This document shows positions 33,191-41,912 of a stretch of DNA of 64,000 nt, piece after piece. The notes below the pieces were generated by a model that ran no database searches, was not told where the DNA came from, and worked only from the letters and a program-made list of their open reading frames with translations. The DNA comes from Escherichia coli (GTDB lineage Bacteria > Pseudomonadota > Gammaproteobacteria > Enterobacterales > Enterobacteriaceae), in NCBI RefSeq assembly GCF_003019035.1, contig NZ_CP027447.1; one strand, given 5' to 3'. A program made the translations under genes and the position numbers. The stretch's first letter is position 1. Each line of letters opens with the position of its first letter.

Positions 33191-33484
33191 TTATTGATTC
33201 TCAACAGGAAGAAACGAAACCAACCGTAACCCATCCAAATCCACCGGAATACGTCTGTTTTCACCCCAGGTCTGAAATTCAAAACCCGACTCGGTATTGG
33301 TCGCCCAGGCCATGACCACATTTCCGCAACCTGCCAGTTGGGAGATTTGCTGCCAGATCATCTCCCGAATACGTTTTGATGTATCACCAACATAAACACC
33401 GGCACGTACTTCCAGGAGCCAGATTGCAAGCCGTCCACGTAAGCGCGGAGGGACATTTTCTGTAACAACCACGACCATGCTCAT
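33191..33484 (-). CDS. cas2: CRISPR-associated endoribonuclease Cas2 (type I-E, 97 aa)
   Basis: Starts [19 protein letters not shown], Cas2 family; adjacent to leader. Confidence 0.92.
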
Positions 33485-34404
33485 CCGCTGCGCCCCCGGT
33501 GACCACTATCACCTAGCAATTCAGGTTCCGGGATAGCTGGTGGTAACATATCCGGCGCAGGTTGTGGTGGTTCAATTTCACCGGCGGCAAGGACTTCCTC
33601 AATTAACGGAATTAATTTGCCCGTTAATTTACTACTACGGAAAATATCACGGCAGGCCAGTCTCACTTCTTTATCAGGTTCTGCCGGGTGTCTTGCCGCT
33701 ATTTCAAATGCCTTTGGCACAACCAAATCAAATTTAATGATATCGGCTATGTCATAAACAAATGAAAGCGGTTTGCCACTATGGATAAAACCAATAGCGG
33801 GCGCATATCCCGCAGCTAATACTGCAGCTTCAGAAATACCGTACAGGCATGATGTGGCAGCACTGATGCAGCGATTGACAACATCGCCTTTTTCCCAGTC
33901 TTTAGGATCGTATTTGCGACCATTCCATTTCACACCATATTGCTTCGCCAGTAATGCATAGGTCTGGCGAACACGGGATCCCTCAATTCCCCGTAACTGC
34001 TCCACTGAACGGCGAGCTGGCGGTGGTTCACGAAAACGTAATTCATACATTTTGCGCACCACCTTCAACCGTAGATCTTCCGTTAAAGCCAGCTTTGCCT
34101 GGTAGAGTAATTTATCTGCCCGCGCCCCTCCGGGTTGTCCGGAGGAGTAAACGCGAACGCCCGCTTCACCGACCCAGACCAGCAGTGTTCCCACCGTGGC
34201 GACCAGATGGACTGCCGCGTGGGAAACTCTTGTTCCCGGTTCGAGCATAATGCAGGCGACCGATCCCACTGGAATATGCGTGCGGATCCCGGTTTTGTCG
34301 ATCAGCACGAAAGCGCCGTCCAGTACGTCGACCTGACCGTACTGGAGGAAGATCATGGAGGTGCGATCTTTTAACGGGATCGGGCTCAGCGGTACAAACG
34401 TCAC
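33481..34404 (-). CDS. cas1: CRISPR-associated integrase Cas1 (type I-E); start probably GTG at 34404 (alternative TTG at 34440)
   Basis: Cas1 family sequence from [14 protein letters not shown]...; overlaps cas2 start and cas6e stop. Confidence 0.9.
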
Positions 34405-35051
34405 GCCTCTGCTCCAGGTTTGATCAGCATCAGACCACAACCGAACGCCCGGCTTTTGCCATACCCCTGACTGAGACGTTGCAGAAATAACCCAGGATCG
34501 GTGACCGTAAGCATCCCCGTATAATCCACGCTACTGAACTGGATCAGTTGCCGGGAGTTTTCCCGCCGCAGTTGCTGTTGTCGGTAGGCATCAACCGAAG
34601 TATCCAGCAGTGTAAAACCGCTTCTCTCCCCCTGCGCTGCCAGCCAGTCCAGCGCCGCCTGTTGTTGATGCAACCAGACATTTCTTCCTTCCGCCTGCCC
34701 CCTCACCTGCCGTTTCGCCTCCATCAGCAGATCGTGGCGCTTACCCGCTTTACAGACTGTTGGATTCGCCCGCAGGTTGAAACAAAGGGATTGTCCGGTA
34801 TGCAGTTCAGGCGCAAATGACCGGCATTCGATGGTGAACGTTTCACTTTCCGCCGGGCGTTCCTGCGACAGGACAAAAAAGCGAAACGCGCCCTGGAGTT
34901 CTTCCCGACGATAAAGAAATTGCCTTTCTTTGCCGCCAGGAAAAAGATCCCACAGCCACTGATGCATCACATATTCACCGCGATCCACCAAATGCAGCAA
35001 CTGCGCAGGCGAAAGCTGACCGGTATGTAAGGTTATTCTTGAGAGGTACAT
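34401..35051 (-). CDS. cas6e: Cas6e (CasE/Cse3) crRNA endoribonuclease
   Basis: ~216 aa starting MYLSRITL, C-terminal G-rich loop GYGKSRAFGCGLM; position in operon. Confidence 0.85.
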   Translation of the reverse strand: MYLSRITLHTGQLSPAQLLHLVDRGEYVMHQWLWDLFPGGKERQFLYRREELQGAFRFFVLSQERPAESETFTIECRSFAPELHTGQSLCFNLRANPTVCKAGKRHDLLMEAKRQVRGQAEGRNVWLHQQQAALDWLAAQGERSGFTLLDTSVDAYRQQQLRRENSRQLIQFSSVDYTGMLTVTDPGLFLQRLSQGYGKSRAFGCGLMLIKPGAEA

Positions 35052-39044: not shown

Positions 39045-41744
39045 TCAACCAACCTTGCCAATCAATCCCTCCGTAGCCGAATACCCACAACTTTCGTCAT
39101 CGGTGACTAAAATCACGTTTGCCATCTCCGGATCATGCCGCTGTTCAACGCACCACTGCCTGAACGCATCCCCTTCCAGTAAAGAAAACTCATCCCGATG
39201 TTTTTTCCACCAGCTTCGGCGCACTCTGACAACGCTCATTTCCCATGCGTGTGCACCTGTGGCATAAGGCTTCACCACACCGTCAATACAGGTAGCCAGC
39301 CACAGGGAAACAGACTCTTCAGCCAGACGTGTCGACAGTTTTTCCGGGAGGTAATCGTTGATATTGGCGGCATAGCCGGGCCTGAAGTTCAGTACAAACT
39401 TTTTAGCCATTGCGCGATCGCAGTAATATTTGCCCACTTGCTCCTGCTCGCTGCGGGCAAACCCTTCCGGCATTACTACGTCCTCACCGTAGACTGATTC
39501 AATCAGAAGCCGGGCTGAGTGTGGCATCTGAATAGCACCTTGCTCACGCAGCACACGCTGCGTCAGCCAGATTCGCCCATGATCGGGATAGACAAATGCA
39601 CTGTTACGCATGGCACTGCCAAACCATTCGTCACCCGGAGAGTCGTCCCAGACGGGGGCCAGAATCAGCAATTCAGGAGGGTGACGCTCGTCTTTACCGT
39701 CACGCTTTAACTGGCCATTCATATCGCGGATATGTCGCTGTAATCGCCCTGCTCGCTGGATCAGTAAATCAACAGGGGCAAAGTCGGAAATCATTTCGTC
39801 CAGGTCGCAGTCAACGCTCTGCTCCAGGACTTGAGTACAAATGAGGACTTTTCCGGCACGCTGTGAACAGTCTTCTTTACCAAAGCGTGCCAGCGTCTCC
39901 GTTTCAATTCGCTGGCGATCGCTAAAAGCAAAGCGGCTATGAAAAAGTGAAAGGCTGGAAGCAGGAATGACGCCGCGGGCAAGTAACTGACGATGAACCT
40001 GGATGGCGTCATCGACAGAATTTCGGATCCAGGCGATACATTTCCCCTGACTTACCGCCGATTCGATACGCGCAATACACTCTTGTTCGCTATGAAGCCA
40101 ACCCACACTCACGCTGCGCTCAACGTCTTTGCGCGTCGCTACCCGGTGTGAATGCACATCGGATTTCGTAACGTGCGTCAGCCAGGGGTAATCATCCTTT
40201 TCCAGGAACGGAGCTTCTTGCTGGCCCTCTATACCACGCGCAAAGGCAGCAACGAGTTTGTCGCGCTGCTGTTGAGATAACGTGGCAGAAAGCAAAATGA
40301 CGCTGTTTCCGCCACGCGCCTGCCGCTCGATCAGCCCTTCAAGAATGCATGACATGTAAGCGTCACAGGCATGGATCTCATCAGCCAGCAGGATTTTGTT
40401 ACTCAGTCCCAGAAGCCGCAGATTATTATGTTTGAACGGCATCACAGCCATCATCGCCTGATCCAGCGTGCCGACGCCAATTTCAGCCAGTAGCGCCTTC
40501 TTGTTACTGTCGGCAAACCAGGCCGCACATCCCTGACTGCACGTTTGTTCATCCGGTTCTTCTGACCCGACTAAATCACCGGACCAGAGTGATTCATTAA
40601 AGCGGTCCATTAATGTTCGGGCACTGTGTGCCAGCACCAGGCTGGGGCGGGACTCTGGCGAATAGAAAGCAAGCCAGGTTTTGACCAGTCGATCGTACAT
40701 GGCATTGGCCGTTGCCATTGTTGGCAGGCCAAAAAACAAACCCTGCGCTTTCCCCGCAGCCATCAACCTGTGCGCCAGGATAAGCGCCGCTTCTGTTTTA
40801 CCTGCGCCGGTTACATCCTCCAGAATAAATAACTGTGGTCCCGGCTGGCTGATATCCAGATCCAGCACCTTTTGCTGTAGCGGTGTCGGATTCTCAATAA
40901 AAGGAAACAGCGTATTAATTCCGGTGAAAGGCGCGCTTTCTGCTTTTGGAGGAAAGACGGTTAAGGCGTTTTGAGCCTGAACTAAAGTTTTCTGCCAGTA
41001 ATCTTCAATATCCATTGTCTGTGCGACGCGTGGAAAATATCGCGTTGACGATCCCGTCCAGTCTGCAAGTACGACGGTTGCAGAGATATACCAGGAAAGT
41101 TGTTTTATAAGTTCAACGCCCTCGTCATCATCCCAGAATGTGGGGATCTCTATGAGCGGAAACAGTACCTTGATTGCAAGGAGAAAATCTCGTGCGGCAC
41201 CTTTGTCTTCAGGCAGAAAATTATCCAGTTCATCCATACGCTCAGGGGGTCGACCATGATGCCCGGTAGTCATGGGCATCCACATCTCCATCACCCGTTT
41301 AAGTTTGCGCGGAGAGAGTGAAGATGAAGGAAGCAACTCCTGACATTCACTTAAATAATGGTTCCACAACCAGTAGCCCAGCGTTGAATGAGAGATCTTT
41401 TCGTAATTCTTTCTTGCGCCTTCCGGAACCTTGAGTTGTGGGTGCAGGTAAAGTTGCTGAAAAGAGCGGGCAAATTTTCCAATATCGTGCCAGCACAGCA
41501 GCCAGGCGAAAAATTGTGCTGCCAGCTCCGTGTCAGCGAAACCTAATTGACGAAAATAGTCAGCCAGTCCGAAGCAATTGCTTTTAACCATTAAATAGCC
41601 CATCGCGGCTACATCCAGCGAATGCCAGCAAAGAAGGTGATAGTCGTCACCACCCTCTTTCTCGCCGCGTCGGGTTTTTCCCCAGAAATCAAAAAAAGTC
41701 ACAATATTTTTATCCTTCAGTAAACTTAAAGGATATTTACGCAT
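39045..41744 (-). CDS. cas3: Cas3 HD nuclease/SF2 helicase (type I signature, 899 aa)
   Basis: N-terminal HD domain, DEAD-box helicase motifs (GAGKTE, DEIH). Confidence 0.92.
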   Translation of the reverse strand: MRKYPLSLLKDKNIVTFFDFWGKTRRGEKEGGDDYHLLCWHSLDVAAMGYLMVKSNCFGLADYFRQLGFADTELAAQFFAWLLCWHDIGKFARSFQQLYLHPQLKVPEGARKNYEKISHSTLGYWLWNHYLSECQELLPSSSLSPRKLKRVMEMWMPMTTGHHGRPPERMDELDNFLPEDKGAARDFLLAIKVLFPLIEIPTFWDDDEGVELIKQLSWYISATVVLADWTGSSTRYFPRVAQTMDIEDYWQKTLVQAQNALTVFPPKAESAPFTGINTLFPFIENPTPLQQKVLDLDISQPGPQLFILEDVTGAGKTEAALILAHRLMAAGKAQGLFFGLPTMATANAMYDRLVKTWLAFYSPESRPSLVLAHSARTLMDRFNESLWSGDLVGSEEPDEQTCSQGCAAWFADSNKKALLAEIGVGTLDQAMMAVMPFKHNNLRLLGLSNKILLADEIHACDAYMSCILEGLIERQARGGNSVILLSATLSQQQRDKLVAAFARGIEGQQEAPFLEKDDYPWLTHVTKSDVHSHRVATRKDVERSVSVGWLHSEQECIARIESAVSQGKCIAWIRNSVDDAIQVHRQLLARGVIPASSLSLFHSRFAFSDRQRIETETLARFGKEDCSQRAGKVLICTQVLEQSVDCDLDEMISDFAPVDLLIQRAGRLQRHIRDMNGQLKRDGKDERHPPELLILAPVWDDSPGDEWFGSAMRNSAFVYPDHGRIWLTQRVLREQGAIQMPHSARLLIESVYGEDVVMPEGFARSEQEQVGKYYCDRAMAKKFVLNFRPGYAANINDYLPEKLSTRLAEESVSLWLATCIDGVVKPYATGAHAWEMSVVRVRRSWWKKHRDEFSLLEGDAFRQWCVEQRHDPEMANVILVTDDESCGYSATEGLIGKVG

Positions 41745-41912
41745 ATATTAAAAATTATCTGTGATATATATCGTTCAATAAAATATTTACATTATGAATA
41801 ATCAAATAATTTTCATCCGTAATATATATGAATAATAAACATAGGCATAATATTCACATAAACAATATAAATTAAAAAAGGGTGCAGGAGACCAAACCAT
41901 CACAATTCAGTA

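Follow-up and report, generated by a model that had tools for sequence, protein, structure and literature searches.

The window analysed here, a stretch of 64,000 nucleotides of Escherichia coli DNA, carries a CRISPR-Cas locus of type I-E at the iap-cysH site of the chromosome. Eight full-length type I-E cas genes lie at 33191-41744, all of them on the minus strand (Table 1), and the layout of the region (iap, CRISPR2.1 array, leader, cas2 to cas3, A+T-rich tract, hok/sok, cysH) is ancestral. The completeness of the eight genes, claimed in an earlier note on this DNA, is borne out by the NCBIfam type I-E models, whose cut-offs are passed by each of the proteins with nearly the whole profile covered: Cas2e (1-87 of 87), Cas1e (3-268 of 269), Cas6e (1-207 of 208), Cas5e (1-228 of 230), Cas7e (1-325 of 325), Cse2 (2-166 of 167), Cse1 (1-504 of 504), and Cas3 through its HD domain (1-178 of 178) and helicase core. 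None of the eight reading frames contains an internal stop. The catalytic residues of Cas1 (Table 1) are present, as are the catalytic motifs of Cas3: HDIGK at 86 (HD), GAGKT at 313 (Walker A) and DEIH at 455 (DExH). With gene starts set to the RefSeq starts in SCU-301, a genome 99.9% identical to this one, all the overlaps reported earlier are reproduced, namely three of 4 nt (cas1/cas2, 33481-33484; cas6e/cas1, 34401-34404; cse1/cse2, 37393-37396) and one of 19 nt (cas5/cas6e, 35033-35051). The longest cas1e frame extends to 34440 with a TTG start, and that of cas6e reaches 35189, the TIGR01907 alignment beginning at residue 47 of the long frame.

Table 1. Features of the type I-E locus and its surroundings, in window coordinates.
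Feature	Coordinates	Strand	Details
CRISPR2.1 array	32334..33094	-	12 perfect GTGTTCCCCGCGCCAGCGGGGATAAACCG repeats, 12 spacers of 32 nt, degenerate terminal repeat
CRISPR leader	33095..33190	-	96 nt, 72% A+T, between cas2 stop and first repeat
cas2e	33191..33484	-	97 aa; TIGR01873, 133 bits; 86% identical to K-12
cas1e	33481..34404	-	307 aa; TIGR03638, 380 bits; RefSeq start in SCU-301; E141/H208/D221
cas6e	34401..35051	-	216 aa; TIGR01907, 287 bits; RefSeq start in SCU-301
cas5e	35033..35779	-	248 aa; TIGR01868
cas7e	35790..36845	-	351 aa; TIGR01869, 448 bits
cse2/casB	36860..37396	-	178 aa; TIGR02548; no significant similarity to K-12 CasB
cse1/casA	37393..38955	-	520 aa from ATG 38955 (probable start); TIGR02547, 605 bits
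cas3-cse1 intergenic gap	38956..39044	-	89 nt, 55% A+T, one AAGGATGG copy
cas3	39045..41702	-	885 aa from GTG 41702 (most likely start); longest ORF, from ATG 41744, 899 aa
A+T-rich tract upstream of cas3	41703..41910	-	presumed promoter region; 208 nt, 77% A+T
-10-like TAAATAT	41733..41739	-	20 nt after TCACA; prediction only
Degenerate CRP-like site AACGATATATATCACA	41760..41775	-	7/10 core positions (TGTGA-N6-TCACA)
hok/sok type I toxin-antitoxin module	41939..42233	-	Hok CDS 41939-42091; Rfam sok match 42076-42233
Intrinsic terminator 3' of cysH	42307..42338	-	14-pair stem and T run

The starts of cse1 and cas3 bear on the intergenic distances. The first ATG of cse1 (38961) abuts a GAGAGGA Shine-Dalgarno sequence, with no proper spacing from it, and the RefSeq start is the next in-frame ATG, at 38955. 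This is probably the real start and gives a cas3-cse1 gap of 89 nt; the 83 bp stated earlier holds only if the gap is measured to ATG 38961. For cas3, a start at ATG 41744 had been assumed, but comparative data favour GTG 41702, which would most likely be the one used. The in-frame upstream ATG is absent from E. albertii, an extra T lies between the ATG and the GTG in 042 and in Escherichia sp. MOD1-EC7003, and Cas3 alignments with other genera start at residue 15 of the long frame; the Cas3 proteins of relatives, mostly of 877-892 aa, begin 1-5 codons ahead of a conserved aromatic-W-G-K motif.

The operon is almost certainly the published cas-E1 (or cas-EO) type I-E variant of E. coli (PMC3903273, PMC3737337). 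The variant is already known, having been described by Almendros et al. (2014), and a non-K-12 operon is not new. In protein alignments its Cas proteins are close to those of E. coli O157:H7 (85-99% identity), 042 (94-98%) and E. albertii (93-98%), with which the cas genes group; against Salmonella cas-STM, identity is 70% for Cas3, 74% for Cse1 and 83% for Cse2. K-12 is far: 21% for Cse1, 27% for Cas6e, 29% for Cas3, 30% for Cas7 and 35% for Cas5, with no significant match between Cse2 and K-12 CasB. The statements of the earlier note that this is a non-K-12 variant, and that Cse1 and Cas6e in particular are not the K-12 proteins, are thus fully supported. That the genes are of K-12 type after all, the earlier note being wrong about the K-12 sequences, has practically no chance of being correct; Cas1 and Cas2, 85-86% identical to K-12, are all that speaks for it, and the protein comparison with K-12 rejects it. 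In the same direction, the K-12-specific NCBIfam models score under their cut-offs (NF007247 on Cse1 gives 103 against a cut-off of 576), and the G+C content of the operon is 51.6% here versus 44.8% in K-12. Almendros et al. reported means of 53.5 for cas-E1, near the genome average, and 45.6 for cas-E2, the K-12 type (PMC3903273). For cas-E1, hok/sok must also be present and the cas3-cysH intergenic region must be E1-specific (PMC3903273); in the window this region gives Hok/Gef Pfam and Rfam sok matches, and the sequence upstream of cas3 is conserved among E1 genomes. In the flanks, identity to K-12 is at least 99% for cysH, cysI, cysD and iap. Among 5426 complete E. coli genomes the variant is found in 2792 and the K-12 type in 1224. 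Most genomes with the variant share 93-95% DNA identity with the window operon, whose own allele is rare (at least 99% identity in a single genome of the 5426, SCU-301), and the divergence from other cas-E1 genomes follows a mosaic pattern.

The CRISPR2.1 array, its extent taken from the SCU-301 annotation, has 29-nt repeats and 32-nt spacers in a 61-nt period, and lies 96 nt from cas2; the leader region (33000-33500) is 90-92% identical to other cas-E1 genomes. SCU-301, identical across the flanks, possesses one additional spacer. Since this spacer is leader-proximal and matches HK97-like phages, it suggests recent natural spacer uptake. Such a signature, like the full-length genes with their catalytic motifs, argues against the locus being a relic that is intact in sequence yet permanently silent and no longer provides immunity. 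We consider that reading improbable, even if several observations agree with it: in the laboratory the K-12 system stays silent (PMC3737337), 373 of the 2792 E. coli genomes with the variant retain less than 80% of it, Cas3 fusion proteins arising through internal deletions are common, and at E <= 0.01 no phage or plasmid match was found for any of the 12 window spacers.

The region upstream of cas3 is very A+T-rich, as had been noticed (83.8% at 41745-41880), and it includes the A+T-richest tract of the window: the 208 nt at 41703-41910 fall within the top 0.17% of such stretches. By its position, this tract is probably the IG4 of Almendros et al. (2014). It is separated from cysJIH by the strong cysH terminator and the hok/sok module, and DNA similarity to K-12 picks up again only at 42089. 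The tract contains many weak sigma-70-like sites, none of which beats shuffled sequence. Matches of 7/10 to the CRP core, such as the one listed in Table 1, occur across the window at chance frequency. The position of this candidate site is conserved across enterobacterial relatives: of 17 lineages, 11 have their best CRP-core match with its centre 61-69 nt upstream of cas3, and the core at the same position reaches 8-9/10 in nine other lineages. A TCACA followed, about 20 nt further on, by a TAA(A/T)-type element also recurs. The likeliest promoter would consist of the -10-like TAAATAT with no -35 element; if this element is used, transcription is predicted to start near 41726, with the conserved CRP-like site centred near -41.5. 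That a CRP-type promoter drives cas3 is a tentative proposal, somewhat short of an even chance. The K-12 cas3 promoter is CRP-activated, and deletion of hns raises its activity only slightly (PMC7019758). H-NS would probably damp the promoter in the tract; silencing by H-NS is suggested by A+T content only (77% over the 208 nt), and a search for the high-affinity H-NS motif gave 203 matches versus 181 expected, which is chance level.

Transcription starting in the A+T-rich tract would have to pass the cas3-cse1 gap on its way into cse1-cse2-cas7-cas5-cas6e-cas1-cas2. This gap is intermediate in length, not contiguous. At 89 nt it exceeds the overlap or the roughly 30 nt of a contiguous operon, and it is shorter and less A+T-rich than its counterpart in K-12 MG1655, which measures 414 nt (71% A+T), in agreement with the several hundred bp given in the earlier note; the two gaps share no DNA similarity. 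Most E. coli have a gap of 97 nt, and the AAGGATGG element, present once here and in E. albertii, has two copies in each of five further E. coli genomes that were compared. Among relatives with a Cas3 about 70-75% identical, the two genes overlap by 4 nt or are separated by 10 nt, by 11 nt (five lineages) or by 28 nt; these eight lineages are S. enterica (locus L045), K. pneumoniae, Kluyvera, C. youngae, C. sedlakii, C. amalonaticus, Phytobacter and E. chengduensis. Other relatives have gaps of 151, 173, 424-506 or 865 nt.

Whether the eight genes form a single transcription unit from cas3 to cas2 is, in our judgement, an evenly balanced question. The proposal is plausible, unproven and compatible with everything computed, and taken jointly with the cas-E1 identity it keeps the same even standing. 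It fits because neither the gap nor the cas3 3' end contains a sigma-70-like site, because the gap RNA has no significant structure (z = 0.46 for folding versus shuffled sequence), because cas3 and cse1 overlap or lie within 28 nt in the eight lineages named above, because deletion of cas3 in Salmonella Enteritidis raises cse1 through cas2 about 8-20 fold (PMC7168661), and because a 2026 preprint on S. Typhimurium counts cas3 within the operon (bioRxiv 10.64898/2026.02.26.708173). If it is true, Cas3 and Cascade are co-regulated in cas-E1, unlike in K-12, where a region containing a separate promoter under H-NS/LeuO control lies between cas3 and Cascade. Two units, in which the A+T-rich tract drives cas3 by itself and cse1-cas2 depend on a promoter of their own, either in the gap or within the 3' end of cas3, we regard as rather unlikely. 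This arrangement is experimentally established in K-12 (PMC7019758) and S. Typhi (PMC8039139), and the long gaps, which must hold a cse1 promoter, are found in roughly half of the related lineages. A gap of 89 nt is long enough for one. Its terminal 40 nt or so correspond to a cse1 leader that other genera have kept, including lineages with gaps of 173 and 424 nt, and part of an ancestral cse1 promoter may therefore be left. The gap also carries TTGATA, a -35-like hexamer, but no -10-like hexamer stands at a usable spacing from it, and the 25 best sigma-70-like sites within 38900-42400 all lie outside both the gap and roughly the last 860 nt of cas3, most of them clustering at 41700-41880. A weak hairpin with six T behind it (38989-38970), 15 nt ahead of cse1, could terminate some of the cas3 transcripts, yet its stem has only five pairs, with one fewer in 042, O157 and O104.

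In the literature searched, mapped cas transcripts in enterobacteria were found for K-12 and S. Typhi cas-STY only, and no transcript or transcription start was found for the cas-E1 variant in E. coli. Of the named systems, cas-E1 (or cas-EO, a name taken from O157:H7), which is arrangement A in Almendros et al. (2014; PMC3903273; also PMC3737337, PMC2886076), has the same eight genes and shares with the window locus the iap-cysH site, the leader type, the GTGTTCC... repeat and, upstream of cas3, both hok/sok and the A+T-rich tract; the differences are the rarity of the window allele and its single AAGGATGG copy. The K-12 type I-E system (cas-E2) agrees in subtype, gene order and chromosomal site, with cas3 likewise downstream of cysH and nearly the same repeat, but it lacks the hok coding sequence, has diverged Cascade and Cas3 proteins, and uses separate promoters for cas3 and casA. 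In S. Typhi cas-STY, also of type I-E, five transcription units have been mapped and cas3 is reported to be H-NS-silenced (PMC8039139); the cas3-cse1 distance is 357 nt and cas3 is transcribed independently (PMC7712790, PMC8039139). It belongs to another clade than cas-STM, the Cas3 proteins of the two being 37-45% identical (PMC7712790). Salmonella enterica cas-STM, the Typhimurium/Enteritidis type, is described as contiguous with cas3 first (PMC7712790, PMC7168661, bioRxiv 10.64898/2026.02.26.708173), and L045 was assigned to it by this contiguity, not by serovar name. It shares with the window locus the Cas clade, the position after cysH and a CRP-like site at a similar distance upstream of cas3, and differs in its 11-nt gap and in having sopD upstream in place of hok/sok.

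In the ORF listing and the NCBIfam scans, eight co-oriented genes are found on the minus strand (cas2e, cas1e, cas6e, cas5e, cas7e, cse2, cse1 and cas3). The earlier note had called them full-length type I-E genes, and this is borne out: the match of each to its type I-E model spans essentially the full profile length, and none of the eight contains an internal stop. The catalytic motifs are kept (Cas1 E141/H208/D221; Cas3 HDIGK, GAGKT and DEIH). With the RefSeq gene starts of SCU-301, the E. coli genome nearest to the window (99.9% identical), the four overlaps stated previously are reproduced exactly; the remaining junctions, cas3-cse1 apart, are 10 and 14 nt. 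On one side the locus has cysD and iap as neighbours, on the other hok/sok, cysH and cysI; since the proteins of these flanking genes are at least 99% identical to those of K-12, the window is E. coli chromosomal DNA, with the CRISPR locus at its classical iap-cysH position. The hok/sok type I toxin-antitoxin module between cysH and cas3 is intact (Hok of 50 aa; Rfam sok, 111 bits); K-12 retains only its sokX part, and DNA similarity to K-12 restarts exactly at the hok start codon. Other E. coli encode fusions of the N-terminal part of Cas3 with Cas1, Cse1, Cas6e or Cas7 domains (P0064-P0068, P0073, P0104-P0106), which look like in-frame internal deletions of the cas-E1 operon.

Features of the cas locus and its surroundings (window positions unless another locus is named)
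Feature	Coordinates	Detail
Eight cas genes, window allele	33191-41744	minus strand
cas1/cas2 junction		4-nt overlap
cas6e/cas1 junction		4-nt overlap
cse1/cse2 junction		4-nt overlap
cas5/cas6e junction		19-nt overlap
Leader end of array	33066-33126	extra spacer TGTGCGCCCCATACGGAGCGCCAGCGACATCA in SCU-301, absent from window
cse2 and cse1 3' end	37000-37500	87% identical to O157 and O104, 99% to 042
cse1 start, RefSeq	38955	ATG
cse1 first ATG	38961	abuts Shine-Dalgarno GAGAGGA
cas3-cse1 gap	38956-39044	89 nt
8-bp unit	38990-39005	AAGGATGG; one copy
cas3 start, favored	41702	GTG; 885 aa
cas3 upstream ATG	41744	899 aa
cas3 start region of 042	L003 10009-10063	window 41702-41744
A+T-rich tract	41703-41910	208 nt, 77% A+T
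Candidate CRP-like site	41775-41760	AACGATATATATCACA
-10-like element	41739-41733	TAAATAT
Predicted transcription start	near 41726	if TAAATAT is the -10
hok/sok module	41939-42233
K-12 similarity restarts	42089	hok start codon
Perfect CRP core	55174-55189	TGTGATCGTAATCACA
Second CRP-like site	55231-55246	one mismatch
Long gaps with hairpin and solo repeat	L046 5150-5573; L047 5150-5644; L011 2165-2664	GGCTTATCCCCGCTGGCGCGGGGAACAC

The assignment of the operon to a non-K-12 variant is confirmed by protein alignment. Only Cas1 and Cas2 are close to K-12 (85 and 86% identity), while Cas5 (35%), Cas7 (30%), Cas3 (29%), Cas6e (27%) and Cse1 (21%) are remote, Cse2 has no significant match, and the K-12-specific NCBIfam models for Cse1 and Cas3 score under their cut-offs. 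The same proteins are 85-99% identical to those of O157:H7, 94-98% to 042 and 93-98% to E. albertii, and the G+C content of the locus is 51.6%, against 44.8% in K-12. This variant has been named cas-EO (PMC3737337) and cas-E1 (PMC3903273), and was reported as the ancestral, majority form, tied to a leader of its own, to an intergenic region 5' of cas3 that is specific to it, and to a hok/sok absent from K-12-type strains (PMC3737337, PMC3903273). Our counts agree with the majority status: cas-E1 occurs in 2792 of 5426 complete E. coli genomes (2419 of the 2792 cover at least 80% of the variant sequence) and the K-12 type in 1224. Published work already covers the variant, with its context and prevalence and the mechanistic ways in which it differs in spacer acquisition; the window locus is a standard, catalogued form which requires no new explanation. 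An assembly labelled E. coli DH5alpha (NZ_CM135829.1) carries cas-E1 instead of the K-12 type and is probably mislabelled.

In most 500-nt segments the window allele is 90-97% identical to the copies of E. coli, E. albertii and Escherichia sp. (L003-L009), in a mosaic pattern, one example being the segment across cse2 and the 3' end of cse1; the adjacent iap and cysH segments are about 95-99% identical. An E. albertii origin of the allele is not supported, as E. albertii, Escherichia sp. MOD1-EC7003 and other E. coli are about equally distant, which leaves no clear donor. A contig binned as 'Collinsella sp.' (L008, JAIJJM010000114.1) encodes a Cse1 96% identical to that of the window and is probably mis-binned.

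The length of the cas3-cse1 gap depends on the start codon chosen for cse1. The 83 nt given previously holds up to the first ATG; from the RefSeq start, at which protein alignments of other genera also begin, the gap is 89 nt. The upstream ATG taken as the cas3 start in the earlier note is probably wrong, the GTG being far better supported. It is preceded at 10 nt by AAGGA, while the ATG lacks a Shine-Dalgarno sequence; E. albertii has no in-frame upstream ATG; alignments to E. albertii, Salmonella and Klebsiella begin at residue 15 of the long ORF; the cas3 genes of relatives start 1-5 codons before a conserved aromatic-W-G-K motif, and Cas3 homologues are for the most part of 877-892 aa. An extra T between the two codons is present in 042 and MOD1-EC7003, and because of it the RefSeq annotation lists cas3 of 042 among frameshifted pseudogenes. 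Since this T lies 5' of the favored GTG, the 042 gene is probably intact and the label an annotation artefact.

The gap of the window is 55% A+T, in contrast to the 414-nt, 71% A+T region of K-12. In five other aligned E. coli genomes, SCU-301 among these, a tandem duplication of AAGGATGG brings the gap to 97 nt; a single copy is present in the window, E. albertii and MOD1-EC7003, and this copy number is the sole difference between SCU-301 and the window inside the cas operon. The gap and the final ~860 nt of cas3 were free of sigma-70-like sites both in a consensus scan and in a rough position-weight scan (its matrix built from consensus frequencies). At 15 nt before cse1 there is a hairpin of 5 bp with six T after it (one pair shorter in 042, O157 and O104); an attenuator or terminator was considered here and is unsupported, as folding of the gap RNA is not better than that of shuffled sequence (z = 0.46). 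The last ~40 nt correspond to a cse1 leader that is kept in the Salmonella with a 424-nt gap and in Intestinirhabdus, so the E. coli gap may be the remnant of a longer region.

Among lineages with Cas3 about 55-75% identical, cas3 and cse1 overlap by 4 nt in Kluyvera and are separated by 10 nt in C. sedlakii, 11 nt in S. enterica L045 (assigned to the cas-STM type from its contiguity), K. pneumoniae, C. youngae, C. amalonaticus and Phytobacter, and 28 nt in E. chengduensis. Escherichia (89-97 nt) stands between these and the long-gap lineages: K. indica (151 nt), Intestinirhabdus (173 nt), a second S. enterica group, Cronobacter, Raoultella, C. rodentium, K. spallanzanii and Atlantibacter (424-506 nt), and Chimaeribacter (865 nt). 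Judged from such overlaps and short gaps, about half of the clade could hardly avoid co-transcription of cas3 and cse1. The long gaps lack homology to the 414-nt regulatory region of K-12 and so do not represent that module. Those of the second S. enterica group, C. rodentium and K. spallanzanii start with a conserved G+C-rich hairpin, after which comes a solo CRISPR repeat, GGCTTATCCCCGCTGGCGCGGGGAACAC, inverted relative to the main array; in the fully read gap of L046 (S. enterica) there is then a second, degenerate copy. In Methanosarcinales and Methanoperedenaceae contigs (L029-L041), whose Cse1 is 36-40% identical to the E. coli protein, the gap is 5-22 nt in five of the six examined.

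Of all 208-nt stretches in the 64-kb window, the tract upstream of cas3 has the highest A+T content (top 0.17%). It is cut off from cysJIH by a 14-pair terminator 3' of cysH and by hok/sok, so cas3 needs its own promoter. Many weak promoter-like sites cluster there, and as none in 38900-42400 beats shuffled sequence in the consensus scan or with the rough sigma-70 matrix, the promoter is not assignable from sequence. In 11 of 17 lineages, the sequence that best fits the CRP core (TGTGA-N6-TCACA) has its center 61-69 nt 5' of the cas3 start; nine of the 11 score 8-9 of 10, and the surrounding sequence is otherwise unalignable across genera (51% mean column identity). The E. coli copy scores 7 of 10: its right half-site is complete, and GA is retained in the left one. 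Such a score alone is at chance level (205 matches with up to three mismatches in the whole window, 215 expected), and it is the conserved position in other genera that makes this site a candidate. Several lineages have a TAA(A/T)-type -10-like element about 20 nt after TCACA; if TAAATAT plays this role in the window, the CRP-like site would lie near -41.5, in class II geometry. The unrelated cas3 promoter of K-12 provides a precedent, being CRP-activated and only slightly changed in activity by loss of H-NS (PMC7019758). A perfect CRP core, TGTGATCGTAATCACA, and a one-mismatch site occur elsewhere in the window. As for H-NS, it is the A+T content of the tract that hints at silencing; the high-affinity motif TCGWTWAATT (up to two mismatches) is at chance level (203 matches, 181 expected).

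The CRISPR array is separated from the 3' end of cas2 by 96 nt; it is composed of 12 perfect repeats of 29 nt with 12 spacers of 32 nt, and ends in a further, degenerate repeat. None of these spacers matches a phage or plasmid at E <= 0.01, the only matches being E. coli chromosomal sequence filed among plasmid records. Over 31000-45000, SCU-301 is identical to the window except for the 8-bp indel and one extra spacer, TGTGCGCCCCATACGGAGCGCCAGCGACATCA, at the leader end. Of the 32 positions of this spacer, 30 agree with the gp13/gp14 tail-assembly-chaperone region of HK97-like phages; in HK97 the match is flanked by GAG instead of the canonical AAG or ATG, so the donor was probably a relative outside the collection. 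A lone leader-end difference between near-clonal strains would be the expected trace of natural acquisition, and argues against a permanently dead locus.

The earlier note had also proposed a single transcription unit from cas3 to cas2. Taking the sequence evidence together, this is plausible and unproven, with about even chances; no transcript mapping for any cas-E1 strain was found in the literature searched. The Salmonella cas-STM operon is described as contiguous (PMC7712790), deletion of cas3 in S. Enteritidis raises cse1-cas2 about 8-20 fold (PMC7168661), and a S. Typhimurium preprint counts cas3 as an operon member (10.64898/2026.02.26.708173). Somewhat doubtful, in our opinion, is the broader proposal that cas-E1 and its Salmonella, Klebsiella and Citrobacter relatives would form one eight-gene operon, transcribed from a conserved CRP-dependent promoter of class II within a tract that is A+T-rich and H-NS-prone, with Cas3 and Cascade co-regulated by carbon status and the separate-promoter H-NS/LeuO model of K-12 as the exception for the species. 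How the majority variant is transcribed and regulated is a question of modest scope that lends itself to direct testing. For the Salmonella counterpart, the compact cas3-cse1 junction has already been described. Nearly all that is known of E. coli CRISPR-Cas mechanism and regulation comes from K-12, which carries the minority variant; if the majority variant is a single unit driven from 5' of cas3, wild E. coli would turn on CRISPR immunity by rules other than those of the textbook case.
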